Source: an uncultured Alphaproteobacteria bacterium (GTDB lineage Bacteria > Pseudomonadota > Alphaproteobacteria > CAAHEQ01 > UBA3637). From it: DNA of 64,000 bases. Numbering within the stretch: position 1 is the stretch's first letter; every line of letters starts with the position of its first letter. Below are positions 3,383 to 41,887 of this stretch, piece by piece. The stretch lies in contig CALXUR010000003.1 of NCBI GenBank assembly GCA_944391735.1, forward strand, positions 12,287-76,286, given 5' to 3'. Both the position numbers and the translations under genes were made by a program. The notes beneath the pieces are model-generated. The model saw only the letters and a program-made list of their open reading frames with translations. It was not told the origin of the DNA and searched no databases.

Positions 3383-3775
3383 ATGGCTGAAACAAAAACA
3401 GTGCGGACAAAAAACCGCGACAGAAAGAATATCGCAGTGGGCGTTGCTCATGTGAATTCGACTTTTAACAACACAATGATCACAATTACGGACACACAGG
3501 GGAATGCGATTTCCTGGTCTTCGTCGGGATTAAAAGGGTTCAAAGGATCTCGTAAATCGACGCCGTATGCGGCTCAAGTTGCGGCCGATGATGCGGCGCG
3601 TAAAGCGATGGAGCATGGGTTGAAGACAATCGATGTTTATGTAACGGGTCCGGGCACCGGCCGTGAATCGGCTCTGCGTGCTTTCCAAGCTGCCGGATTA
3701 GTGATTACGTCCATTAAGGACATTACTTCTCTGCCGCACAACGGATGCCGTGCGCGGAAACGTCGGAGAGTTTAG
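3383..3775 (+). CDS. rpsK: 30S ribosomal protein S11
   Basis: S11 family sequence. It is followed directly by rpoA, with no rpsD. Confidence 0.95.
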
Positions 3776-5870: not shown

Positions 5871-7406
5871 ATGACCATTAAATTTTTACAGGAAAGGGAA
5901 ATGGGAATGAGAAAAAAGGACTTGCGTGTTGTAGGGAAGCCTTCGACAGAGGGGCATTATGTGTTACAGGATCCCCGGGTCAAGCCCGAGGATGACACAT
6001 TTATGAAAGAGACCGAGGATGCCCCGTCATCCGAGAGACGAATTTTAGGTGGAATTGGGGGATCCAGAAAGGGTGATGAATCGGGTCGATCGATGGTGGA
6101 AATGCTGGGTGTGTTGGCCATCATGGGATTGTTGGCTATCGGTGGGATTATGGCTTACCGATACGCTGTTACGAAATATCAAGCAAATGAGACGTTTAAT
6201 GAACTGCGCCGCCGGGTGGTAATTCACTCTCAACAGAGTATAACGGGCACGCCTTTATCTCAGGTGGAAATGGGAGAGACAACGCAAATGGGCTATCCGA
6301 TAGCCGTTGCGCGTGTGGACAGCGGCTTTTTTGAGTTAACATTACAAGACATTGACAAGCGTCTGTGTCAAGAAATGGTTCGGACGGGATGGACGTTGCC
6401 GACACAGACGCGTGTGAACGGTATTGTGGTAGGGACGAATCCGGCGGCTTGCGGGGAAGAGAACGTCCTTGTGTTCCGATTCCAGGCGGAAATGGGAGGA
6501 TGTAAAACGGACGCGGATTGTCCTTGCGGAACGTGCGCAAACGGGACGTGTCAGACGAGTTGCAGCAGCGGGGAAAGCTGCGTTAAAAACTTTGATGACG
6601 GGCAATATGTGTGTTGCCCGGGTGGAAAAGTAGTCGGCAACAGTTGTTGTGAACATCCGGGCGAAAACGGCACGTGTTGTGATGAAAATAGCAAATATTG
6701 TTGTCCGCCCGATAAGCCGTTGTATGCACAAGGAAAATGTTATGACTGTGAGGAACAGTTTGTGATATTCGGTGTGGATACAGCCAATACGGAAACACGA
6801 AACAAATATGTGCAAATTTGTAATCGATGTCAAGATCGATGGGTATCGTCATATCATAATTTCAGATGTTATAAGCCGTGTCCTGAAGGAGAGATAATTG
6901 ATTATACAGGAACTTGCCATACCTGTGATGATTCCTCTTTTTTCAGACTTGACGGCACAGATCCGTCATGGTATCTGAGTGCCGAGGAGTGTTTTAAATG
7001 CCCGGGTGTTCGCTTTGCCGGATCGGGAGATTACGGGCAATGGAGTAATTATGGAACAGGATGTTATAATTGCTATGATCCTGAACAATCTGTTGAATTC
7101 GGAACATATGGAACACCCAGTTACACAGGAGGAAGCCGGAAACATCAAAATGCTTGCGACGCCTGTCCCAACAGACGATCGATTAATGATCTTTATTGTG
7201 CCAAATACTGTGAGGATGGAAAAGTATGGGACAATGTCGGGCAATGCCATGCGTGCGATGAAGAGGCAGATTTTAACGTGCAAGGTGTTCCGGAAAACAA
7301 ATGTGCGTGTCCCGGTGTGCGGTATTTGGACGGCAATATGTGTAAAAAATGTCCCGAAGACCTATCCGCTTTAACACCCGAACAGCAGGCACAATGCGGG
7401 GGATAA
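5871..7406 (+). CDS. Prepilin-type (type IV pilin-like) protein with a large Cys-rich C-terminal region. The true start may be an internal Met.
   Basis: Motif ...GDESG|RSMVEMLGVLAIMGLLAIGG: a cleavage-type Gly, Glu at +5, and a hydrophobic helix. The remaining roughly 400 aa hold more than 50 Cys in CxxC/CC patterns. Confidence 0.6.
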   Translation: MTIKFLQEREMGMRKKDLRVVGKPSTEGHYVLQDPRVKPEDDTFMKETEDAPSSERRILGGIGGSRKGDESGRSMVEMLGVLAIMGLLAIGGIMAYRYAVTKYQANETFNELRRRVVIHSQQSITGTPLSQVEMGETTQMGYPIAVARVDSGFFELTLQDIDKRLCQEMVRTGWTLPTQTRVNGIVVGTNPAACGEENVLVFRFQAEMGGCKTDADCPCGTCANGTCQTSCSSGESCVKNFDDGQYVCCPGGKVVGNSCCEHPGENGTCCDENSKYCCPPDKPLYAQGKCYDCEEQFVIFGVDTANTETRNKYVQICNRCQDRWVSSYHNFRCYKPCPEGEIIDYTGTCHTCDDSSFFRLDGTDPSWYLSAEECFKCPGVRFAGSGDYGQWSNYGTGCYNCYDPEQSVEFGTYGTPSYTGGSRKHQNACDACPNRRSINDLYCAKYCEDGKVWDNVGQCHACDEEADFNVQGVPENKCACPGVRYLDGNMCKKCPEDLSALTPEQQAQCGG

Positions 7407-7479: not shown

Positions 7480-9714
7480 ATGACAGAAAAACAAAATGAG
7501 ATAAAATCAACGGAAAACATTAAGGAAACGAAGCTGGCCGACGCATTGTCCGAGCGATATTTAGCCTATGCCATGTCAACAATTGTGGCGCGTTCTTTGC
7601 CGGATGTGCGTGACGGTTTGAAACCGGTGCATCGTCGTCTTTTATTTGCCATGCGTCAATTAAAATTAGATCCGGCGACAGGGTTTAAAAAATGTGCGCG
7701 CGTGGTGGGTGATGTGATTGGTAAATACCATCCGCATGGGGATACCTCGGTTTACGAAGCGATGGTTCGTTTGGCGCAGGATTTTGCCGTGCGTTATCCG
7801 TTGGTTGATGGTCAGGGTAACTTTGGCAACATTGACGGAGACAGAGCCGCGGCGATGCGCTATACGGAAGCGCGTTTAACGCCGGTCGCCATGGCTTTAA
7901 TGGACGGTTTGGATGATAACGCCGTTGATTTTGAAAAGACGTATGACGGAGAGGAGGAAGAGCCGAGTGTGATGCCCGCCGCTTTTCCGAATTTGTTGGC
8001 GAACGGATCATCCGGGATTGCCGTCGGTATGGCAACGAACATTCCGCCGCATAATGTTGGGGAAATATGTGATGCGTTGCAATATTTGATTAAACATCCG
8101 GACTGTGAAATTGTGAAGATGCTTGATTTTGTGCAAGGGCCGGATTTTCCGACAGGCGGGATTTTAGCGGAGTCCCGAGCCAACATCATCAAGGCTTATA
8201 CAACAGGGCGCGGTGCGATGAAAGTGCGTGCCAAGTGGGAAAAAGAAGAGTTGTCACACGGGCAGTATCAGATTGTTGTGACGGAAATTCCGTATGGTGT
8301 TCCCAAATCAGACCTGATCATGAAAATTGCCAAGTTGTTATCGGAAAAGAAGTTGCCTTTGTTGGCGGATATACGGGATGAATCGGCGGACAAGGTGCGT
8401 ATTGTCCTGGAACCGAAATCACGAACGGTCGCGCCGGAACAATTAATGGAGCATTTGTTTAAAAACACGGAGTTGCAGATTAACTTCAACTTGAACATGA
8501 ATGTGTTGGATGCGGATCACACGCCTCGGGTGATGAATTTAAAAGAGGTGTTGGCGGCCTTTTTAAAGCATCGGGACGCAGTGTTGGTGCGTCGATCCCG
8601 TTTTCGGTTAGATAAAATCGCGCACCGCATGGAATTATTGCAGGGCTTTTTAATCACCTATTTGAATCTGGACAGGGTTATTGAAATCATCCGCAACGAG
8701 GACGAACCCAAGCCGATTATGATTGAAGAGTTCAGTTTGTCGGAAGTTCAGGTCGAGGCGATTTTGAACATGCGGTTGCGCTCTTTAAGAAAATTGGAAG
8801 AGGCGCAGTTAAAGACCGAATTCGAAAATCTGGCTCTGGAAAAGGCGGGGTTGGAAAACCTGTTATCCGACGAGCAGATACGATTTAAAAAATTGTCCGA
8901 AGAAATCGGCGAAATCAAAAAGCAATTCGGGGCAAAAACGGTTTTAGGGGCGCGGCGCACGCAAATTGCGGAAGCGGTTGTCAGCATTGATGTTCCGATT
9001 GAGGCCATGATTGAGAAAGAACCGATCACCGTTGTTTTATCGAAAAAAGGGTGGATTCGGGCATTAAAAGGTCATACGGAGACGGACGATTTAAAATTCA
9101 AGGAAGGGGACAGTTTGAAGTTGGCTTTAAAGGCCTACACAACGGACAACATCATGTTGTTTGCCTCAAACGGTCGGTTTTACACGATTTTGGGTGATAA
9201 AATCCCGGGCGGTCGCGGTTTTGGGGAGCCGTTGCGGTTATCAATCGATTTACCGGAGGACGCCGACATTGTAACGTTGTTTGTCTGGCAAGCGGATGAA
9301 CAGTTATTGGTTGCCTCTTTGAAAGGAAAAGGATTTATTGTCCGGACGAAAGACATTATTGCCCAGACGCGTTCGGGGAAAATCATTTTGAATTTATCGG
9401 ATGATGACAAAGCTGTTTTATGTCGTCCGGCGGTGGGGGATCACGTTGCCGTTATCGGCACAAACCGAAAGATGATTGTGTTCAAAGCGGCGGAAATTCC
9501 AACGATGACACGCGGTAGTGGTGTCATGTTACAAAAATACGCGGGTGCGGCTTTATCCGACGTTAAATTCTTTAATTTGGAGGAAGGGTTGGCTTTCCCG
9601 TCCGGAAATGGTATTCGGGTTGAACGGAACATAGAGTTGTGGTTGGCCAAACGGGCAAGTGTCGGTAAAATTCCGCCGGTCGGGTTTCCGCGGAGTAATA
9701 AATTCGGGCATTAA
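7480..9714 (+). CDS. parC: DNA topoisomerase IV subunit A
   Basis: GyrA/ParC N-terminal domain ([24 protein letters not shown], active-site region). About 744 aa and no GyrA-box. The track ORF 7444..9714 begins with a TTG inside the promoter. Confidence 0.85.
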   Translation: MTEKQNEIKSTENIKETKLADALSERYLAYAMSTIVARSLPDVRDGLKPVHRRLLFAMRQLKLDPATGFKKCARVVGDVIGKYHPHGDTSVYEAMVRLAQDFAVRYPLVDGQGNFGNIDGDRAAAMRYTEARLTPVAMALMDGLDDNAVDFEKTYDGEEEEPSVMPAAFPNLLANGSSGIAVGMATNIPPHNVGEICDALQYLIKHPDCEIVKMLDFVQGPDFPTGGILAESRANIIKAYTTGRGAMKVRAKWEKEELSHGQYQIVVTEIPYGVPKSDLIMKIAKLLSEKKLPLLADIRDESADKVRIVLEPKSRTVAPEQLMEHLFKNTELQINFNLNMNVLDADHTPRVMNLKEVLAAFLKHRDAVLVRRSRFRLDKIAHRMELLQGFLITYLNLDRVIEIIRNEDEPKPIMIEEFSLSEVQVEAILNMRLRSLRKLEEAQLKTEFENLALEKAGLENLLSDEQIRFKKLSEEIGEIKKQFGAKTVLGARRTQIAEAVVSIDVPIEAMIEKEPITVVLSKKGWIRALKGHTETDDLKFKEGDSLKLALKAYTTDNIMLFASNGRFYTILGDKIPGGRGFGEPLRLSIDLPEDADIVTLFVWQADEQLLVASLKGKGFIVRTKDIIAQTRSGKIILNLSDDDKAVLCRPAVGDHVAVIGTNRKMIVFKAAEIPTMTRGSGVMLQKYAGAALSDVKFFNLEEGLAFPSGNGIRVERNIELWLAKRASVGKIPPVGFPRSNKFGH

Positions 9715-33460: not shown

Positions 33461-33536
<76 letters not shown>

Positions 33537-33705: not shown

Positions 33706-34158
33706 ATGAAATATATTCTGATTTTAACATTACTGTTGATGAGTGTATCCGCTGGTGCGGTGACAGTTGAGGATATGTCAGAAGCACGAAAGCAAGCAGA
33801 GTTTGAGGCACGTGCGATAGATAAGATTTGTTGGAACGAGGCATTTAAAGATAAGCCGGATACGACAAGAGCTATGTGGGCGGCAGCGGTGCGGAACACA
33901 GACTGCTTATATAAGGAGATAGAAAAACAGGTAAAGCTGGCTTTTTTACCACAGGATCATGAAAAGATGATGGTGTTAATTCATGCAGCCGGTAAAAATA
34001 TAGCGGATATTTACTTTGAGATGCATACCAGTAACCGGTATTGTTACGGGCATTGCGGAACTATGAATAACATCACGCATACGGTGAATGAAATGGAGTT
34101 TTTAATTGGCGTGTTAACAGATTTAATTTTGATGAACAGGATAAAAGACAGTGTATGA
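33706..34158 (+). CDS. Small secreted Cys-containing protein (150 aa), copy 1. Candidate periplasmic immunity protein or lysozyme inhibitor.
   Basis: Signal peptide MKYILILTLLLMSVSAGA. Conserved Cys including CYGHCGTM. Paralogous to 34635..35087. Convergent with a GH108 toxin remnant. Confidence 0.5.
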   Translation: MKYILILTLLLMSVSAGAVTVEDMSEARKQAEFEARAIDKICWNEAFKDKPDTTRAMWAAAVRNTDCLYKEIEKQVKLAFLPQDHEKMMVLIHAAGKNIADIYFEMHTSNRYCYGHCGTMNNITHTVNEMEFLIGVLTDLILMNRIKDSV

Positions 34159-34634: not shown

Positions 34635-35087
34635 ATGAAATATATTCTGATTTTAACATTACTGTTGATGAGTGTATCCGTTGATGCAGCGGAAAAGGAA
34701 GAAGTGTGTGACACGTTGGAATGTGCGAAGGCTCAAGCGCATCACATTGGAAAAACGTGTTGGGATGAGGCGTATAAGGATGATCCGTATTCGACAGCGG
34801 AGATGCGCCGAGCCGATTTTAATGCAAATGATTGCATGTATAAAGCGGTGGAGGAGCAAGTCAGGCAAGCTTTTGAACCGACCGAGCAAGAGCAGGTTTT
34901 AGAATGGATTATGACAGGGTGGCGTGGGGTCAGTCAAACATACTGGATGATTTTTAACAATAATAAATATTGTTACGGTCGTTGTGGAACAATGCAACAT
35001 TTACGAAATACTCCTTTTGAAGCTCAATTTTTAGAGCAGGTTTTGGCTTGGTTAATTCATGCAAATGCAAAGAAAGGGAGTATTTAA
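34635..35087 (+). CDS. Small secreted Cys-containing protein (150 aa), copy 2
   Basis: Same signal peptide as copy 1. CYGRCGTM. Convergent with the intact GH108 toxin gene. Confidence 0.5.
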   Translation: MKYILILTLLLMSVSVDAAEKEEVCDTLECAKAQAHHIGKTCWDEAYKDDPYSTAEMRRADFNANDCMYKAVEEQVRQAFEPTEQEQVLEWIMTGWRGVSQTYWMIFNNNKYCYGRCGTMQHLRNTPFEAQFLEQVLAWLIHANAKKGSI

Positions 35088-35097
35088 CTCCCTTCCT

Positions 35098-36360
35098 TTA
35101 TTTGATAAAGTGACGTTCGCTTCTGGTTGTCAGACCTTTTCGGCGGGTTCCGTATCCGGCTGGGTTTGCGTCAGCGTATTGGTTTATTTGTCCGGAACGT
35201 TGTCGGACAATATAATTGTTGACTTCTTTCATTTGTTGAAGGGTCAAATTATTAAGGGCATTAATGGTTTGTGATCCCATGATGCCGTCTTCATCTACTT
35301 GAAAAGAAGTCAATTGATTAATACCTTGTTGCACCCATTGAATCGGCTCTATCGGAGAATGGTTTGCCAAAAGGTCAAATAAGGTCTTGGCTAACTTTTC
35401 ATTTTTAATTTCTTCAATGCGGTAGGCATCGTAATAATCCATTTTATAAATGGTTGTTGCCTGATCCCTTGTTAAATCCTTAACGGTAGCGGGATATGTT
35501 CTTCCCAAAGTCGGATGGGCCGCTTTAAAACGATTTAATGAACCTTGAATAACACCCATATTGGTCGGTTGATCTATTCTAGTCGGTCTATCTTCATAAC
35601 CGCCCTCTTCCTGATAGACAGATGACAACAGGCGATCAAAACGGGTGGTGGAACCGTAGCCCAAAAGTTCATTCATCTTATCGACCGTCAGGTCATCGGG
35701 GCGCAAAATGCCGGTTCTATCCAAACCGTTATCTCGTTGAAAAGCCGAAATGCCGTCAAACAGTTGTTGGTCGGGATAGGGGGTTATTCCCTCTGACTCC
35801 GGCAGGTAATAGCCCAAGTCGTATAAGGCCTCTTTTGTCGAGATAACGTCTGTGGGAGAGGCGAAAGAGGGGCTGACGGATTGTGTGATAAAAAAGCCCT
35901 GCGCGTCGGTATTGTTATCTGTTAAAAAGTTCGGTTTTATCGGTGGTAACGACGGGTATTGATTTGCATCAACCGTTACGGACGGTTGCGAAATGGTCGG
36001 CTTTTGATAATAATTCGGCGCGGGCAGAGAGTTTAAATCCCGAAAGGCTCGATTTAACAATTTTTCGTTTTCTCGGGCATTTTTTTCGGCACGTTTGCTT
36101 TGGCTTGTTTCTTCCCTATTTTTTTGCTGTGCTTCTTTTTCATCATGGTCTTGTCCGCAGATGCGGTTATAGGGTTTGACATGCTTACCCTTTCGCATAT
36201 GGCCGGGAACGTGAATGAGTTTTTGGCAATGTCCGGATGTGTCGTGTCCTTTGGAACTGAGTTGTCGCTTCGGGATAATTTGTGCCTGTCCCGTGAAAGA
36301 GCTCAGGTTTTGTAATATTTTGGCGATATTGATAAATGCGGTAAGAGATTTTTGATCCAT
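35098..36360 (-). CDS. Polymorphic toxin-like protein: conserved His/Cys-rich N-terminal domain, S/T/P/Q-rich linker, GH108 lysozyme-like domain and PG_binding_3
   Basis: N-terminal GHDTSGHCQKLIHVPGHMRKGKHVKPYNRICGQDHDEKEAQQKN is shared with 38438..38773, 40284..41024 and 36841..37245. The C-terminal half has the EEGGYEDR...DQPTNMGVIQ catalytic block of glycoside hydrolase family 108 and a DEDGIMGSQTINALN PG-binding segment. Start taken as Met18 of the track ORF (RBS AAAGGAAAAGC). Confidence 0.6.
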   Translation of the reverse strand: MDQKSLTAFINIAKILQNLSSFTGQAQIIPKRQLSSKGHDTSGHCQKLIHVPGHMRKGKHVKPYNRICGQDHDEKEAQQKNREETSQSKRAEKNARENEKLLNRAFRDLNSLPAPNYYQKPTISQPSVTVDANQYPSLPPIKPNFLTDNNTDAQGFFITQSVSPSFASPTDVISTKEALYDLGYYLPESEGITPYPDQQLFDGISAFQRDNGLDRTGILRPDDLTVDKMNELLGYGSTTRFDRLLSSVYQEEGGYEDRPTRIDQPTNMGVIQGSLNRFKAAHPTLGRTYPATVKDLTRDQATTIYKMDYYDAYRIEEIKNEKLAKTLFDLLANHSPIEPIQWVQQGINQLTSFQVDEDGIMGSQTINALNNLTLQQMKEVNNYIVRQRSGQINQYADANPAGYGTRRKGLTTRSERHFIK

Positions 36361-36556: not shown

Positions 36557-36796
36557 CTATTTCGGGTTTACGGGATAGAAACGGCATATTTGTTTTTCTA
36601 TATCCCAAACACCTCGGCCATAGCAAGTGTCTTCATTAACAACGCATTCAGTTCCCCAATCACAGTGCGCAAATATAAATCCCTTGGGACAAATACCACC
36701 CGAGAGACAATCATCCTCCCGTAAATCTATATAAGTCATAAGAGCGACTGTCACTATGGTAAAAACTGTCAAACACATAAAAAAGAAAAACTTCAT
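36557..36796 (-). CDS. Small secreted Cys-rich protein (79 aa, 8 Cys). Candidate immunity protein downstream of the decayed toxin 36841..37245.
   Basis: Signal peptide MKFFFFMCLTVFTIVTVAL. Same strand as the toxin remnant and directly 3' of it. Confidence 0.4.
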   Translation of the reverse strand: MKFFFFMCLTVFTIVTVALMTYIDLREDDCLSGGICPKGFIFAHCDWGTECVVNEDTCYGRGVWDIEKQICRFYPVNPK

Positions 36797-36840: not shown

Positions 36841-37245
36841 CTAATATTTCAAAGGTAAGCCTGATGGTCTGAAAATGCCACAGCTTTCACTTAATGTTTT
36901 TCCTTTATTGGCTCCCCGCAATCCGGAAATATTTGCTTTCATGTCAGATAAACTTTCATTAGGACCATATTTAAAAACATCTTTACTTTCTTTTAACAGA
37001 GATAACAGAAGGCCTACTAGGTTACCGTAGACACCCCGTGAACCGGCTTCATAGTTTGCTTTACAGTGAAAGTATTTATCTCCGCCGATAAAATTAGTTT
37101 TATTCATATCATTAAAATTTCGGATGAAATCTTTGAGCGGTGCAAATAGTCCGGTCGTTGTTTTTTCCGCTTGATTTTTTTATTGAGCTTCTTTTTCGTC
37201 GGGTGCTGGCACACCGATTGCATTTCCGATGGGTTCTGTTTCCAT
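36841..37245 (-). pseudogene. Decayed toxin paralog: the N-terminal domain carries an internal in-frame deletion and a CAA-to-TAA nonsense codon (37180-37182). The C-terminal small domain is of unknown function.
   Basis: METEPIGNAIGVPAPDE joins directly to KEAQ(*)KNQAEK, with the central roughly 55 codons missing. The same frame continues into track ORF 36841..37107 (FIGGDKYFHCKANYEAGSRG...). Confidence 0.5.
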
Positions 37246-37478
37246 GATCTTTTTCCTTTCAATAAAAAAGCCCGCCGCAAGAGATTCCGGACAGGCATAA
37301 AAAAATCGGGATACACTTTTATTTTAAAAAACTTGTTTTTTACTTTTGAAATTGATAGAATTGTATAAAGGTTTAAAGAGGATATCTAATGAAATATGTA
37401 TTTGGAATTATTTTGGGATTGTTTTTGGTTTCTTGTCAAACACAAGAACCGGTTCAATTTAAAAATCCGATTTTTTAT
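37195..37478. repeat. Duplicated module of about 285 bp: toxin N-terminus, leader, divergent intergenic region and lipoprotein N-terminus. Second copy at 38725-39008.
   Basis: Near-identical stretches from CGTCG(G/A)GTG..CACCGATTGCATTTCCGATGGGTTCTGTTTCCATGATCTTTTTCC through ...CAATTTAAAAATCCGATTTT. Confidence 0.6.
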
Positions 37479-37772
37479 GAAACACTTTATCCTATTTCCA
37501 AGACGGTTCGGGAGACGCGATTGACACCGACGAAGATATATGTGAATGCATTTATTTCGGAAAAAGAGTGTCGATTGCTAAAGAATACCGAGACCGTTTT
37601 GGAGTTTTCCTGTGAATACGACCATCCGTTCAGCGGGCATTTTTCGGATGTATTTTATCGGTATGTTATTGAAGGGGAGGAATCAAAATATACCAATTGT
37701 TTGATTGTTAGGTTGGAAATGCCCGGTGGAACAGCCTGGTTTTGTATTCACCGAGAAAAACCACAGGATTAA
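37389..37772 (+). CDS. Lipoprotein (127 aa), island-associated. Candidate immunity protein.
   Basis: MKYVFGIILGLFLVSCQTQEPVQFKNPIF lipobox. The N-terminal 30 aa are identical to 38919..39389. Convergent with the lysozyme-like toxin domain gene. Confidence 0.55.
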   Translation: MKYVFGIILGLFLVSCQTQEPVQFKNPIFYETLYPISKTVRETRLTPTKIYVNAFISEKECRLLKNTETVLEFSCEYDHPFSGHFSDVFYRYVIEGEESKYTNCLIVRLEMPGGTAWFCIHREKPQD

Positions 37773-37829: not shown

Positions 37830-38773
37830 CTATTTGTTTCTATATTTACAAGGAGAATAAAACCATCCATTGATTAATGGAATTTCCCGTAAAGTATTTC
37901 TGGCCCAATCATTGCGGGTTTTTCCGACCTGATATCTATTTACCTCGTTAATCATTTGAAAAACATTTTTTTTGTTAACGCCCTCAAAGAAAAAATGCCA
38001 TTTTTCAGAATTAAAATTGTGCCCCATATTATATTGCATGTCTAATAAAACCATTTGTAGCGTTCTGGGATATGTTTCAAATGCCGGAAATTTTGATTCT
38101 AATTCAGCTAAGTCATTTCCCAAATGTTCCATTGTTTTATCAATAATTGTGTGTTCGGATAGAGTTAGTTCTTGGGAATGATTTGTTACACGGAAGTCTT
38201 CTGAAGTATAATTTTTTCCAAATATTTTCTGTTTTTGAAAATCCAAGAGTCGTTTATATTCGCCTAGTTTTTGCTCGGTTGTAGCCTCTTTTCCTTGATA
38301 CATCCAGGGGAGTGATATAAAGGTTTTTTGATTCGGAATATATAACCCGCTGGCGGCTGTTATCTTTCCCAATGTATCCAAATAGGCATAATTGATTGAT
38401 CCTTCATGTTTTTTTAGATATGGCCAGTATGCTTGAATTAATTCATCATATTTTCGTTGTTTTTTTTAGATACAGTTTCTTTTTGAGAAAGTGTTTCTTT
38501 GTTAACTTTTTCCGCTTGGTTTTCTTGTTGAGCTTCTTTTTCGTCATGGTCACGGCCACAGGTGCGGTTATAGGCGTTGACGGGTTTGCCTTCGCGGCTA
38601 TGAGCGGGAACATGTATCATTTTTTGACAATGCCCCGATGTGTCGTGTCCGTTTTGAGAATTATCGCTGTTTCCGAACAGAAAAGCGAATAGATTTTGTC
38701 GGTTATTATTGACTTGGTTGTTTTCGTCGAGTGTCGGTACACCGATTGCATTTCCGATGGGTTCTGTTTCCAT
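37830..38773 (-). pseudogene. Toxin paralog split by a frameshift at a T8/A8 homopolymer: N-terminal conserved domain (38438..38773) and T4-lysozyme-like C-terminal domain (37830..38381)
   Basis: The N-domain ORF stops 20 codons after the A8 run. The downstream ORF frame is open from immediately after the run. Inserting one A fuses them. The C-terminal domain has LLDMQYNMG...NRYQVGKTRNDWARNTL, resembling the phage/T4 lysozyme (GH24) C-terminal lobe. Confidence 0.55.
38460..38467. repeat. T8 homopolymer (A8 on the coding strand) at the frameshift site
   Basis: gttg-TTTTTTTT-agat. A +1 slippage restores a roughly 310-aa open reading frame. Confidence 0.6.
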
Positions 38774-38918: not shown

Positions 38919-39389
38919 ATGAAATATGTATTTGGAATTATTTTGGGATTGTTTTTGGTTTCTTGTCAAACACAAGAACCGGTTCAATTTAAAAATCCGA
39001 TTTTTAATAAAAAACTAGAAGCTATTTCCAAAATTCTTAATGATGTAAAAATAACTCCGACAGAAATTATAGATCTAAAGGATCCGGAGGTATTACCGGC
39101 AACGTGTGAGTTATTGTCCGATGAAGGATATCGTATTATTATGAAGTGTGTGCAGCCCTATCGAACAATACCGGTGCAAACGGTGTATTACCGTTTTACA
39201 AATATGGGAAAATATGAACCATTCTATTCGTCAGAAAAAAATCTGTGTGAAATTCATCAGGAGCAATGTGATGATATGGATTTTCAAAATTTTTACTCTT
39301 GGGGTGTTTTTGTCGTTCGATTAAACGATGGGGAGGATTGTGGTCCTCAGATGCCTGAAGACCAACTCCCCGAATGGTTGATCAGGTAA
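38919..39389 (+). CDS. Lipoprotein (156 aa), island-associated. Candidate immunity protein.
   Basis: Lipobox LVSC. The C-terminal roughly 90 aa (ATCELLSDEGYRIIMKCVQPYRTIPVQTVYYRFTNMGKYEPFYSSEKNLCEIHQEQCDDMDFQNFYSWGVFVVRLNDGEDCGPQ) are identical to 39445..39912. Confidence 0.55.
   Translation: MKYVFGIILGLFLVSCQTQEPVQFKNPIFNKKLEAISKILNDVKITPTEIIDLKDPEVLPATCELLSDEGYRIIMKCVQPYRTIPVQTVYYRFTNMGKYEPFYSSEKNLCEIHQEQCDDMDFQNFYSWGVFVVRLNDGEDCGPQMPEDQLPEWLIR
39081..39350. repeat. 270-bp direct repeat at near-100% identity. Second copy at 39610-39879.
   Basis: Identical from GATCCGGAGGTATTACCGGCAACGTGTGAG through GAGGATTGTGGTCCTCAG. It encodes the shared C-terminal part of the two lipoproteins. Confidence 0.6.
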
Positions 39390-39444: not shown

Positions 39445-39912
39445 TTGATGAAGCATGTGTTCGGGGTTATTTTGAGTGTGTTCTTGGTTGCTTGTCAAAC
39501 GCAAGAAGCGGTTCAATTTAAAAACCCGGTTTTTAATAGAAAGTTGGCATCAAATGTGAGTATGGATTACGATATTGTGATAACGCCGAGAATCATGGTC
39601 ACTTTAAATGATCCGGAGGTATTACCGGCAACGTGTGAGTTATTGTCCGATGAAGGATATCGTATTATTATGAAGTGTGTGCAGCCCTATCGAACAATAC
39701 CGGTGCAAACGGTGTATTACCGTTTTACAAATATGGGAAAATATGAACCATTCTATTCGTCAGAAAAAAATCTGTGTGAAATTCATCAGGAGCAATGTGA
39801 TGATATGGATTTTCAAAATTTTTACTCTTGGGGTGTTTTTGTCGTTCGATTAAACGATGGGGAGGATTGTGGTCCTCAGGCACCTAAGGACCAACTTCCC
39901 GAATGGTTTTGA
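39445..39912 (+). CDS. Lipoprotein (155 aa), tandem paralog of 38919..39389 with a divergent N-terminal third
   Basis: MMKHVFGVILSVFLVACQTQEAVQFKNPVF lipobox. The C-terminus is identical to the upstream paralog. Confidence 0.55.
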   Translation: MMKHVFGVILSVFLVACQTQEAVQFKNPVFNRKLASNVSMDYDIVITPRIMVTLNDPEVLPATCELLSDEGYRIIMKCVQPYRTIPVQTVYYRFTNMGKYEPFYSSEKNLCEIHQEQCDDMDFQNFYSWGVFVVRLNDGEDCGPQAPKDQLPEWF

Positions 39913-39936
39913 TTATACTATTTTTATTTTTTTGTT

Positions 39937-40251
39937 TTAAAGAGTAAAAGCTAAATATATATTCAACCCGATAAAATACAAAAGCGGATAACTTAATATT
40001 ATAACGGATTGCCACGGTTGTTGGTGATGACGCAGTCGTGCATACCATAAACAAAGGATAATCAGTATTGCTTCGGTTAAGTTGACTACAGTATAGTTAA
40101 GGGGATGATGATACATCCAACCTAAATTATCCGCTTGCCAGGGTATTTCCGGATTGGCAATATCTTGGAAACACCCGATAAAGAGAAAGCCTGTCAGAAA
40201 GATATTAAAAGCGGCAAGTAAAAAAAATAGAATGCGTTGAATATATTTCAT
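39937..40251 (-). CDS. Small polytopic membrane protein (104 aa). Candidate immunity protein directly downstream of the Tlde1-like toxin.
   Basis: Three predicted TM segments. Same strand as 40284..41024, 32 nt downstream. Confidence 0.45.
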   Translation of the reverse strand: MKYIQRILFFLLAAFNIFLTGFLFIGCFQDIANPEIPWQADNLGWMYHHPLNYTVVNLTEAILIILCLWYARLRHHQQPWQSVIILSYPLLYFIGLNIYLAFTL

Positions 40252-40283
40252 AATATTAATACTATCATCTTTTAAAAAAATGT

Positions 40284-41024
40284 CTAGTATTTAACTTGAA
40301 CAATAACATCATATCCATTATTTTGAAACCATTTTGCAAAATCAGCCATTGCCTTTGTTAGATCAATACATCCGGCAGAACCTGGCGTTAAGCCTCCATG
40401 AATAGAAAAATTATTTCTTCCATATAGATTAGTATCATTCGCTGGTGTTAACCAAATGCGTTGTTCTCCCCATGCAGCTGTTCCACCTCTCCACTGTCCG
40501 CCACCTATTGAAGACTTAAATTTTTGCCATGCTCCCAAATTTTCCCACTTTTGAAAATCGCTGATTTTTGCAACATAATTGTCTTCGGGAAGTGGACCAT
40601 AATTTTTTAAATCCTGATAATTTGGATGTTGAAAGCCCGGTCGTCCGGATACACCTTTCCATTCCTTAATAATTTCTCCATTTTCGTGCAGGGTAAGACT
40701 TTTACCATTAAAAGATAAATACTGCCCATTTTTTAGGTTTAATGGAGTATTCCATTGTGTATATGGATTATTTTTTTGTTGAGCCTCTTTTTCGTCGTGG
40801 TTACGGCCGCAGATGCGTTCATAGGCGTTGACGGGTTTGCCTTCGCGGCTATGAGCGGGAACATGTATCATTTTTTGACAATGCCCCGATGTGTCGTGTC
40901 CGTTTTGAGAATTGTCGCTGTTTCCGAACAGAAAAGCGAATAGATTTTGTTGACTGTTATTTCTCGGATTGTTTTCGTCGGGTGCTGGCACACCGATTGC
41001 ATTTCCGATGGATTGTGTTTCCAT
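40284..41024 (-). CDS. Polymorphic toxin-like protein: conserved His/Cys-rich N-terminal domain and Tlde1/DUF2778-like (YkuD L,D-transpeptidase-fold) C-terminal domain
   Basis: N-terminus METQSIGNAIGVPAPDENN...NGHDTSGHCQKMIHVPAHSREGKPVNAYERICGRNHDEKEAQQKN. C-terminus has ...GRPGFQHPNYQDLKNYGPLPEDNYV and FSIHGGLTPGSAGCIDL (His...SxGC catalytic motif of the YkuD/Tlde1 family). Confidence 0.6.
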   Translation of the reverse strand: METQSIGNAIGVPAPDENNPRNNSQQNLFAFLFGNSDNSQNGHDTSGHCQKMIHVPAHSREGKPVNAYERICGRNHDEKEAQQKNNPYTQWNTPLNLKNGQYLSFNGKSLTLHENGEIIKEWKGVSGRPGFQHPNYQDLKNYGPLPEDNYVAKISDFQKWENLGAWQKFKSSIGGGQWRGGTAAWGEQRIWLTPANDTNLYGRNNFSIHGGLTPGSAGCIDLTKAMADFAKWFQNNGYDVIVQVKY

Positions 41025-41242
41025 GGTCTTTTTCCTTTCAATAAAAAAGCCTGTCGGATCAGATTCCGAACAGGCATTAAAAAAATCGGGATACATTTAT
41101 CCCGATTAACTGAAAGATATCATATCATAAATCAGATTAAAAGTCAAGGAATATTTTCCTATAAATAGAAATATTTTCTTTATTGACTTTTGTCGGGAGG
41201 CGTGAAATACTGAACGAAAGTTGACGATGAAAGGAGAAGGTT

Positions 41243-41887
41243 ATGAAAAAAGTGTTGCTTGGAATCGGATGTTTATTGTTGGGGGCATGTTGTCATTCTT
41301 TACCGGGACAGTTACCGGAAGAGGTTGTATTTGAAAATGTGGATGAGGGGGCTCAGGTCGTTTATATGCCGACCTCGGGCGTTTGGACGCGGGGCGGTAT
41401 GGCGGACGATCGGATTGTTTGCACGCGTCATGTGTCATCCGGAACCGGCAGTTATTCGGAATACGTTTGTTCGGGGCAGCGTTTCGGTTTATCTTCAACA
41501 CAAGAATTTGTTTTGAAGGGCAGGCTTATCGGATACAGTGCGCATACGTTTAAATTTTATGAAACGGTTTTTCGGAACGGTTCTTTTGACACGCGGGAAT
41601 TAACGGTGTCGGCGGTTCAGGATTTGTTTCCCGACATGCGGATTGTGCCCGTATCCGATGTTAAAAAAGGCATTTTAACCGTTCGGCGGTGTGGCAGGGA
41701 TACGGAAGATGTTTTAATTGTGAATGATACGCCCGCCGATTTTTATCGTTATTCGTTTGATCCGCCGGTTAATGCCGGAACGCCGTTTAAATCCATTTTA
41801 ACCATGTCGGCACCTCAAACGGTTGTGCTGTCTCATTTTGATGAGGATACACCGGACTACCCGGCGTTAAGAATACGGATTCAATAA
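41243..41887 (+). CDS. Lipoprotein (214 aa), core-like GC. Divergent from the toxin leader copy R4.
   Basis: MKKVLLGIGCLLLGAC lipobox. Confidence 0.5.
   Translation: MKKVLLGIGCLLLGACCHSLPGQLPEEVVFENVDEGAQVVYMPTSGVWTRGGMADDRIVCTRHVSSGTGSYSEYVCSGQRFGLSSTQEFVLKGRLIGYSAHTFKFYETVFRNGSFDTRELTVSAVQDLFPDMRIVPVSDVKKGILTVRRCGRDTEDVLIVNDTPADFYRYSFDPPVNAGTPFKSILTMSAPQTVVLSHFDEDTPDYPALRIRIQ

Follow-up and report, generated by a model that had tools for sequence, protein, structure and literature searches.

Gene organization of the locus

The window analysed here is a 64-kb stretch of a contig from an uncultured alphaproteobacterium. On its minus strand it carries a gene for a predicted toxin (40284..41024) and, directly downstream, a gene for a small membrane protein (39937..40251). 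The toxin gene encodes a protein of 246 amino acids (aa) in which an N-terminal carrier part is joined to a C-terminal Tlde1/DUF2778 domain, as seen from its open reading frame (ORF) and a Pfam match. The 104-aa product of the second gene has three transmembrane (TM) helices by hydropathy and, from its position, is the predicted cognate immunity protein. Both ORFs, proposed in an initial annotation of this DNA as an effector gene followed by its immunity gene, are present at these coordinates on the minus strand. Our analysis supports reading the pair as a Tlde1-type cassette of a polymorphic toxin system, made up of a toxin C-terminus and its immunity gene and carried on an uncharacterised domain in a gut alphaproteobacterium.

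The N-terminal part of the toxin (the N-domain, residues 1–85, 40770..41024; repeat families D2, D5 and D6) is also found in three paralogous toxin genes. The Tlde1-like catalytic domain, delimited by an AlphaFold2 (AF2) model, Foldseek and profile alignment, occupies residues ~98–246 (40287..40733). The three-TM gene begins 32 nucleotides (nt) past the toxin stop codon on the same strand, and a blastn comparison with a sister strain (locus L089) outlines an exchangeable cassette (39915..40769, minus strand) that consists of the Tlde1 C-terminal domain and the three-TM gene.

We place the start of the toxin at the ATG at 41024 (METQ...) rather than at the start of a longer, 270-aa ORF at 41096, because nine of ten strain variants begin there (METQ or METEP), a ribosome-binding site (RBS) of the AGGA type lies 8 nt upstream of this ATG, and the extension overlaps a structured leader that is conserved in the paralogues. 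The toxin has 106 homologues, and an identical protein is encoded on the ENA metagenome scaffold ONAT22-1_SAMEA6814560 scaffold_72 (175 kb), which contains the window.

The C-terminal region is a Tlde1 domain

The C-terminal ~150 residues of the toxin are a Tlde1/DUF2778 domain, and the match is far beyond chance. Pfam PF10908 (Tlde1_dom) aligns with residues ~131–236 (155–260 in the 270-aa ORF) over profile positions 13–109 of 120, with an E value of 7.7e-9 and a score of 36.5 bits, above the gathering cut-off of 30.1; a match to the YkuD family of Pfam is sub-threshold. Most homologues also carry PF10908. A single-sequence phmmer search of the PDB with the toxin returned nothing relevant, and a profile built from 66 relatives matched Salmonella Tlde1a (7UMA/7UO8) with an E value of 1.6e-6 over residues 4–163 of 174. 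In the AF2 model, the predicted local distance difference test score (pLDDT) exceeds 90 from residue ~90 to the C-terminal end. The first three Foldseek matches of this model are Tlde1a entries (7uo8/7uma; E ~1e-7, best 8e-8; target TM-score 0.62; 24–26% identity), followed by B. subtilis YkuD (E 1e-4) and by mycobacterial L,D-transpeptidases such as LdtMt2 (E 6e-4). The initial assignment to DUF2778/Tlde1 is therefore borne out by a search with hidden Markov models (HMMs) above the Pfam threshold, by the profile match to 7UMA and by a C-domain model that is closest to the Tlde1a fold.

The active-site set is intact, with Arg203, His209 (40398–40400), Ser216, Gly218 and Cys219 (40368–40370). 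In the profile alignment these residues correspond to Arg115, His121, Ser128, Gly130 and Cys131 of Tlde1a, and the positions are nearly invariant among the 66 relatives. Substitutions at each of these five positions abolish the toxicity of Tlde1a, the loss in S128A being attributed to misfolding (PMC9638812). The His...SxGC arrangement that had been noted from the sequence is present as FSIHGGLTPGSAGCIDL (residues 206–222 of the 246-aa product), and its catalytic residues align with those of Tlde1a; the remark was both correct and specific, because the 10-residue His–Cys spacing is of the Tlde1 type. From homology to Salmonella Tlde1a, we infer that the C-domain is enzymatically active and that its site of action is the periplasm.

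A membrane protein gene follows the toxin gene in most related loci

Hydropathy analysis of the 104-aa protein delineates hydrophobic segments at about residues 7–25, 53–73 and 83–101. The protein is predicted to have its N-terminus inside (N-in), a periplasmic loop (~28–52) that contains the motif PW-x-[DE]-x-[LM]-GW, a basic cytoplasmic loop (~72–82) and no C-terminal tail. The protein has no Pfam match at E<=0.1 except a sub-threshold one to DMT_6, no NCBIfam or PHROG match, and no HMM match to Tldi1 (DUF2195), Imm16 (DUF2750) or Imm57. A word-based search with it returned a single cluster, 98% identical.

A scan of species-representative genomes gave 286 relatives, from which 80 loci were kept for inspection. 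Most of these come from metagenome-assembled genomes (MAGs) of gut and rumen Alphaproteobacteria, Candidatus Enterousia included, and a few from Magnetospirillum, Cupriavidus, Aquitalea, Pseudoalteromonas, Chondromyces and an acidobacterial MAG. Among the 80 loci and the other loci fetched by then, 65 encode full-length toxins. A multi-TM ORF of ~100–130 aa lies directly downstream on the same strand in 63 of these 65, mostly after a gap of less than 35 nt; the downstream ORF has three predicted TM helices in 54 loci, two in nine and none in two.

By sequence, these partner proteins fall into clusters A (28 members), B (17, including the window protein), C (7) and D (3). With the window protein left out of the HMM of cluster B, that model still gives it 18.1 bits, compared with a maximum of 9.2 in 2000 segment-preserving shuffles. 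Conservation in cluster B lies in the TM1–TM2 loop (C...CPWG-E-MGW-W..P..Y), of which the window protein retains PW-x-D-x-LGW-x-Y..P..Y and has lost the second Cys. Clusters B and C are linked by iterative search, in which shuffled controls gave no matches; hhalign comparisons of B with A and of B with D were negative, so that B and C are the only linked pair. Likewise, BLASTP detects no similarity between the 104-aa protein and the 123-aa partner of the closest toxin (locus L002). We therefore rejected a single immunity family for all partners: they share position and topology, not one demonstrable family, since clusters A and D have no detectable homology to B.

In partners with three separate hydrophobic segments, hardly any acidic residues occur in the N-terminus and loop 2, both of which are short and basic, and loop 1 is acidic, Cys-bearing and on average ~22 aa long. 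For the C-terminal tail, the median over 36 partners is 0 aa. This distribution of charge over the N-terminus and the two loops predicts an N-in/C-out orientation in which loop 1 is periplasmic. Such a loop would be in the right place to meet a toxin acting in the periplasm, and the predicted orientation is unlike that of a class I holin.

Several related loci (L005, L006, L063, L065 and L066) hold tandem multi-TM genes, or short toxin C-terminal fragments each with its own TM gene. These genes and fragments lie at 6310–7408 in L005, 7148–9089 in L006 and ~4790–5850 in L063, L065 and L066, and the fragments retain HGG..GSAGC. They are orphan toxin C-terminus/immunity remnants of the kind typical of polymorphic toxin loci.

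Toxin domain and membrane protein gene are exchanged together

A sister strain carries the same chromosomal site (locus L089). Its protein, P0008, combines a different C-terminus with an N-domain that shares 96% identity with that of the window toxin. In the blastn alignment, the window matches this locus at 99% identity from 45000 down to 40770, is unmatched from 40769 to 39915, and becomes collinear again from 39914 at 91% identity. On the left, the match breaks off where the N-domain ends, between ...EKEAQQKN and NPYTQW, and the unmatched block comprises precisely the Tlde1 domain and the three-TM gene. At this place, the only coding content of the L089 block (8256–8901) is a frameshifted C-terminus of a GH24-like lysozyme. 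The toxin domain and the TM gene thus move as one unit.

The effector-then-immunity order that had been proposed for the pair finds strong support in these comparisons: a multi-TM ORF follows the toxin gene in nearly all full-length loci, and C-domain and TM gene are swapped together relative to L089. The three-TM protein most likely protects the producer, and it would do so by neutralising the toxin.

A rare N-domain with conserved Cys and His residues

The N-domain has an invariant core of ~30 residues with the pattern C49-x8-H58-x13-C72-x3-H76 (40797–40880; alignment A3), in which Val55, Arg60, Tyr68, Arg70 and Gly73 are likewise invariant. AF2 predicts a β-hairpin at residues 51–71, with pLDDT values of 50–60 for the domain. 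It is not covered by any model in Pfam, NCBIfam or PHROGs. When 1.84 billion cluster representatives were searched exhaustively with HMMER, 19 matched at E<=1e-3, of which 17 are credible. We rejected P0119, a TPR false positive, and P0124, in which the hairpin motif is present but the Cys/His ligands are missing. Ten matches came from a word-based search with the profile of the domain.

The C-termini fused to this domain are Tlde1, phage-type lysozyme, PG_binding with GH108, PG_binding with another domain, and an SAA-like domain; all are cell-wall directed except the SAA-like one. The rarity of the N-domain, together with the lack of a secretion-system context in the window, agrees with the earlier view that the fusion to a novel N-domain is notable.

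The toxin has no hydrophobic signal segment, and its N-domain matches no recognised trafficking domain in Pfam, NCBIfam or PHROGs. Neither secretion-system nor phage genes are found within the window, as judged from its 30 largest ORFs and the gene table of locus L001, both of which show housekeeping genes only. The same survey shows no structural genes of a type VI secretion system (T6SS) and no Hcp, VgrG or PAAR, either adjoining or fused. A VirD4/TraG-like gene lies ~7 kb from a toxin homologue in L002/L003, which is a weak lead.

Many of the closest relatives of the Tlde1 domain, from gut and rumen Alphaproteobacteria, have a MuF-type N-terminal part (PF04233 or the motif HPNC[RK]C) and are followed by a three-TM gene; their partners include cluster-B homologues of the window protein. 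We considered the N-domain as a MuF relative and rejected it: it has no PF04233 match, hhalign gives a probability of 0.2% against the MuF Zn motif, and the window has no phage genes. In a phage collection, the toxin family is represented by two unannotated 'Bacteriophage sp.' faecal contigs, of which L091, the one inspected, has no recognisable phage context. IMG/VR contains 12 relatives, mostly stand-alone toxins and none with the MuF motif, whose downstream ORFs, where present, mostly have at most one N-terminal hydrophobic segment. A phage link for the window toxin is therefore not supported.

Proposed function and alternative explanations

The pair is best explained as a polymorphic-toxin module composed of an N-terminal carrier, an exchangeable Tlde1 C-domain and a cognate three-TM immunity protein, and we regard this explanation as probable. 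The locus and its relatives display the features of polymorphic toxins, with a constant N-domain, alternative C-termini, a cassette swap, toxin-fragment plus TM remnants and tandem TM genes. In such a module, the ~85-aa carrier with its Cys/His motif of the zinc type would specify export or delivery. Once in the periplasm of the target cell, the C-domain would act as a Cys/His L,D-carboxypeptidase/L,D-transpeptidase-exchange enzyme, as its homology to Tlde1a suggests, trimming or re-decorating tetrapeptide stems; the wall would then be starved of cross-link donors, leading to division arrest and lysis. In the producer, the periplasmic TM1–TM2 loop of the three-TM inner-membrane protein may bind the toxin and inhibit it on the outer side of that membrane, giving cognate immunity.

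Several observations weigh against this explanation. A signal peptide is missing from the toxin, and secretion-system genes are missing from the window. The TM gene has no obvious Shine–Dalgarno sequence, and the closest toxins (63% identity, same N-domain) pair with cluster D, which has no detectable homology to cluster B. Finally, residue 148 of the window toxin (40581–40583) is an Asp (GPLPED), and it is a Gly in 66 of 67 related loci.

Position 148 is also a Gly in nine of the ten strain variants (95–98% identity) and in Tlde1a (IPEGNY), so the invariant Gly of the GPxPEG motif is not retained in the window toxin. This is a matter of conservation within the family, and it bears on activity, not on homology. 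The segment GPLPEDNYV (residues 143–151), cited earlier as characteristic of Tlde1 effectors, is indeed present and lies in the Tlde1 domain, but it contains a unique Gly-to-Asp exchange at an invariant position. With Asp148 in place of a family-invariant Gly, this copy may be weakened or dead. A second exchange in the same motif, G143D, occurs in two other strain variants (P0128 and P0132), and the remainder of the C-domain is almost invariant across the ten. The toxin is perhaps weakened in some strains.

A decaying or attenuated module, with a Tlde1 domain made inactive by G148D and a three-TM gene kept as an orphan-like immunity gene, is the alternative that follows from these exchanges; we consider it possible, though rather unlikely. 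It draws on the uniqueness of Asp148 among 67 loci and ten strain variants, on the two further variants with G143D in an otherwise almost invariant C-domain, and on the state of the island, where two of the four toxin genes are already broken (38773..37830 by a frameshift, the SAA-like gene by a deletion and a nonsense codon). Against decay, the toxin ORF is intact, the catalytic residues are all retained, promoter and leader are intact, and the mutants of PMC9638812 do not include the Gly-to-Asp position. Attenuation is compatible with a toxin–immunity module as the best explanation for the family and would alter only what this copy does.

The search for a cognate inhibitor has a second candidate in two lipoprotein genes on the plus strand, convergent to the pair (38919–39389 and 39445–39912; lipobox LVSC/LVAC), whose C-terminal parts are 96% identical. 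They could be the true Tlde1 immunity genes, like that of the periplasmic Tldi1 in Salmonella, leaving another role for the three-TM protein. In favour of this assignment, the characterised Tldi1 is a Sec-exported periplasmic protein, the lipoprotein genes adjoin the cassette, and in L011 a lipoprotein homologue follows toxin and TM genes on the same strand. Two comparisons make it very unlikely. Both genes are retained unchanged in L089, where a lysozyme C-terminus, directly before them, takes the place of the Tlde1 domain. Moreover, a homologue of the two lipoproteins was found in only one of ~90 related loci scanned (L011), where it borders on the 3′ end of a lysozyme toxin gene convergent to it, as against a TM gene in 63 of 65 loci. 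Because they are kept with the lysozyme version in L089 and abut a lysozyme toxin in L011, we read the two lipoproteins as probable immunity proteins of a displaced lysozyme-type toxin, orphaned in the window and not partners of Tlde1.

The size of the membrane protein, 104 aa with three TM helices, resembles that of class I holins, and the enzyme beside it has no signal peptide. These features would suit a release pair of the holin–endolysin type, in which a signal-less muralytic enzyme stays in the cytoplasm until the three-TM protein permeabilises the membrane, in autolysis or in lysis by a phage or gene transfer agent. The sibling toxins also include endolysin-type domains: GH108 matches the endolysin family PHROG 315 and, below the cut-off, a holin-associated muramidase of NCBIfam. 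Such a role is nevertheless highly improbable. The partners lack the hydrophilic, charged C-terminal tail of a holin (median 0 aa in the 36 partners), and their basic N-terminus and loop 2 predict N-in/C-out, opposite to the N-out/C-in orientation of class I holins. What is conserved among them is an acidic, Cys-containing extracytoplasmic loop; no holin family matches in Pfam, NCBIfam or PHROGs; and no phage genes are nearby in the window. Tandem TM genes, toxin-fragment plus TM remnants and cassette swaps under a constant N-domain are hallmarks of toxin–immunity systems.

A housekeeping L,D-transpeptidase for the 3–3 cross-linking of the cell's own wall, as the YkuD superfamily fold and the sub-threshold YkuD match might suggest, has a negligible probability, given a protein with neither signal peptide nor membrane anchor, an H-x9-C spacing and best sequence and fold matches that are those of the toxin family Tlde1 and not of Ldts, and a gene that lies in a low-GC island, encodes one of the four alternative C-termini that share an N-domain and is missing in the sister strain of 99% identity.

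Comparison with known systems

The toxin–immunity pair resembles Tlde1a/Tldi1a of Salmonella Typhimurium (Tae5/Tai5; 7UMA, 7UO3, 7UO8), with which it shares PF10908, the best fold match, the R...H-x6-S-x-G-C arrangement with its 10-residue His–Cys spacing, and a bicistronic organization with a protective partner. The two toxins are only ~25% identical, however, and the profile alignment shows that the family of the window toxin lacks ~9 residues of the Tlde1a capping insert. Tlde1a is a stand-alone protein of 173 aa encoded in a T6SS cluster, whereas the Tlde1 domain in the window is the C-terminus of a fusion with an unrelated N-domain and has no T6SS nearby. The partners differ as well: Tldi1a is a periplasmic DUF2195 protein encoded upstream, and the window partner is a three-TM protein encoded downstream, without a DUF2195 match.

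The DUF2778 superfamily has been described from alpha-, beta- and gamma-proteobacteria as three families, with Rhs fusions; gene neighbourhoods with type I, II, IV and V secretion system genes (T1SS, T2SS, T4SS and T5SS) suggested recruitment into polymorphic-toxin cassettes, and in the third family the immunity proteins contain at least one TM domain (bioRxiv 10.1101/2020.02.18.954545). The pairing of a toxin with a membrane-embedded immunity protein thus has precedent, as that study reports both TM immunity proteins and cassettes. The initial annotation had called the finding notable in this genomic background. This holds for the fusion to the N-domain, which is unusual; the pairing itself is less surprising, since DUF2778 cassettes with TM immunity were already reported (bioRxiv 10.1101/2020.02.18.954545). 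The third family (Tae7/Tai7, later Tlde1c) is similar in that it is described as having a small TM partner in a bicistron. Rhs–DUF2778 fusions, in turn, show DUF2778 as the C-terminal toxin of polymorphic proteins, widespread in proteobacteria. The Tae7/Tai7 and Rhs–DUF2778 examples come from Enterobacteriaceae, Burkholderiaceae and Pseudomonas and have links to T6SS, Hcp or PAAR, whereas the carrier in the window is neither Rhs nor PAAR.

The X-Tfe/X-Tfi systems of the Xanthomonas type comprise T4SS effectors, mostly peptidoglycan hydrolases, with lipoprotein immunity genes alongside and a C-terminal XVIPCD signal. The repertoire of peptidoglycan hydrolases and the lipoprotein genes in the window recall these systems, a likeness that serves as a lead only; in contrast, the conserved module here is N-terminal, and the window has no T4SS genes.

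Compared with the MuF polymorphic toxins (Jamet et al. 2017, PMC5576092), the window toxin differs in that its N-domain has no MuF similarity and there is no prophage context. That paper mentions neither peptidoglycan nor transpeptidase nor DUF2778 C-termini. In the literature covered, which is incomplete and hence indicative only, we found no prior description of the N-domain–Tlde1 fusion, of MuF–Tlde1 fusions or of the three-TM family with a conserved loop. The enzyme and the toxin–immunity logic are already known; it is the carrier domain that is unusual.

Work on enzymes of the Tlde1 type has dealt with them as cargo of the T6SS in enteric pathogens. Here they appear as a common, exchangeable warhead in uncultured Alphaproteobacteria of gut and rumen, Candidatus Enterousia included, where they ride on MuF-type carriers or on a rare carrier with a zinc motif. 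This points to a further export route in an abundant but unstudied gut lineage. The related loci also offer a large natural set of toxin/membrane-immunity pairs in which to ask how a loop of ~25 residues can inhibit a peptidoglycan-editing enzyme, and they provide a functional label for membrane proteins of 100–130 aa that are annotated as "hypothetical".

A structured leader precedes the toxin genes

Upstream of the toxin gene, a consensus scan finds a promoter-like site (TTGACT-17-TATGAT, 41147–41119, minus strand), and RNA folding finds two elements consisting of a hairpin and a U-run (41107–41084 and 41075–41049, minus strand), just before the RBS. The leader folds with −29.9 kcal/mol (z=−4.5). 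A sigma-70-like promoter and a two-hairpin leader stand before each N-domain toxin gene of the window (41147–41025, 36494–36361, 38861–38774 and 37332–37245, all minus strand), with GGAAT conserved in the loop of hairpin 2. The layout recurs with different stem sequences in other species, at ~3270–3397 in L009 and at ~3530–3658 and ~6683–6800 (minus strand) in L011. An Rfam search of the toxin leaders gave nothing; the only match was a tRNA-Ala at 33461, scored as tmRNA-like. The arrangement suggests that the toxin genes may be regulated by conditional termination/antitermination.

A broader proposal would combine three elements: the C-x8-H-x13-C-x3-H module as the mark of a new delivery route, independent of T6SS, Rhs and MuF, for polymorphic toxins that attack the cell wall in uncultured gut Alphaproteobacteria; control of the genes by conditional antitermination at a conserved leader with tandem terminators; and a new class of membrane-embedded three-TM proteins that inhibit an L,D-peptidase by means of a short periplasmic loop with a disulfide bond. 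We put this combination forward tentatively, and it is doubtful that all of it would hold jointly.

The toxin gene lies in a low-GC island with three sibling toxin genes

The pair is located in an island of ~33.5–41.9 kb with a GC content of 35–41%, compared with 45–49% elsewhere, between tRNA-Ala and anmK. The tRNA-Ala(CGC) gene (33461–33536, plus strand) borders this island, and the flanks encode housekeeping proteins (SecY, RpoA, ParC, GyrA, PepN, Fmt, AnmK, PlsC-like, FtsEX, MiaB, S1, Era, RecO and LepB). These features are consistent with a tRNA-associated genomic island. Four minus-strand genes in it have the N-domain and the leader in common and end in four different C-termini.

Besides the Tlde1 toxin, the island encodes an intact toxin with PG_binding_1 and GH108 domains (36360..35098, minus strand). 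Convergent to it are duplicated genes for 150-aa proteins with signal peptides (33706–34158 and 34635–35087), which probably encode the immunity proteins of the GH108 toxin. A GH24-like lysozyme toxin (38773..37830, minus strand) is split by a frameshift near 38444–38447 into ORFs of 111 and 183 aa; its orthologue in L089 (10048–10992) is intact, with 314 aa. The convergent partner of this gene encodes a 127-aa lipoprotein (37389–37772).

The fourth gene is a remnant of a toxin with an SAA-like (PF00277) C-terminus (37244..36841, minus strand). An in-frame TAA comes after its N-domain, in which an internal deletion joins PAPDE to KEAQ. Intact fusions of the N-domain with SAA occur in other samples (P0014, P0118, P0120 and P0123). 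The remnant is followed on the same strand by a 79-aa ORF (36557..36796, minus strand) that has a TM helix at its N-terminus and a C-terminus rich in Cys (CxxGxCxxG...C.W...C), which is likely to be another immunity or accessory gene. The Tlde1 toxin had been described as the only one here with a small same-strand gene downstream; the 79-aa ORF behind the SAA-like remnant contradicts this. It has no gene call in the source record, and a 51%-identical homologue is found in the toxin locus L005 (7393–7683).

On the other side of the Tlde1 toxin gene, a divergent gene (41243–41887, plus strand) encodes a predicted lipoprotein of 214 aa without a family match. A 36%-identical homologue is encoded at 2489–3133 in L005, a different organism, ~1.9 kb upstream of the N-domain toxin P0006 and on the same strand.

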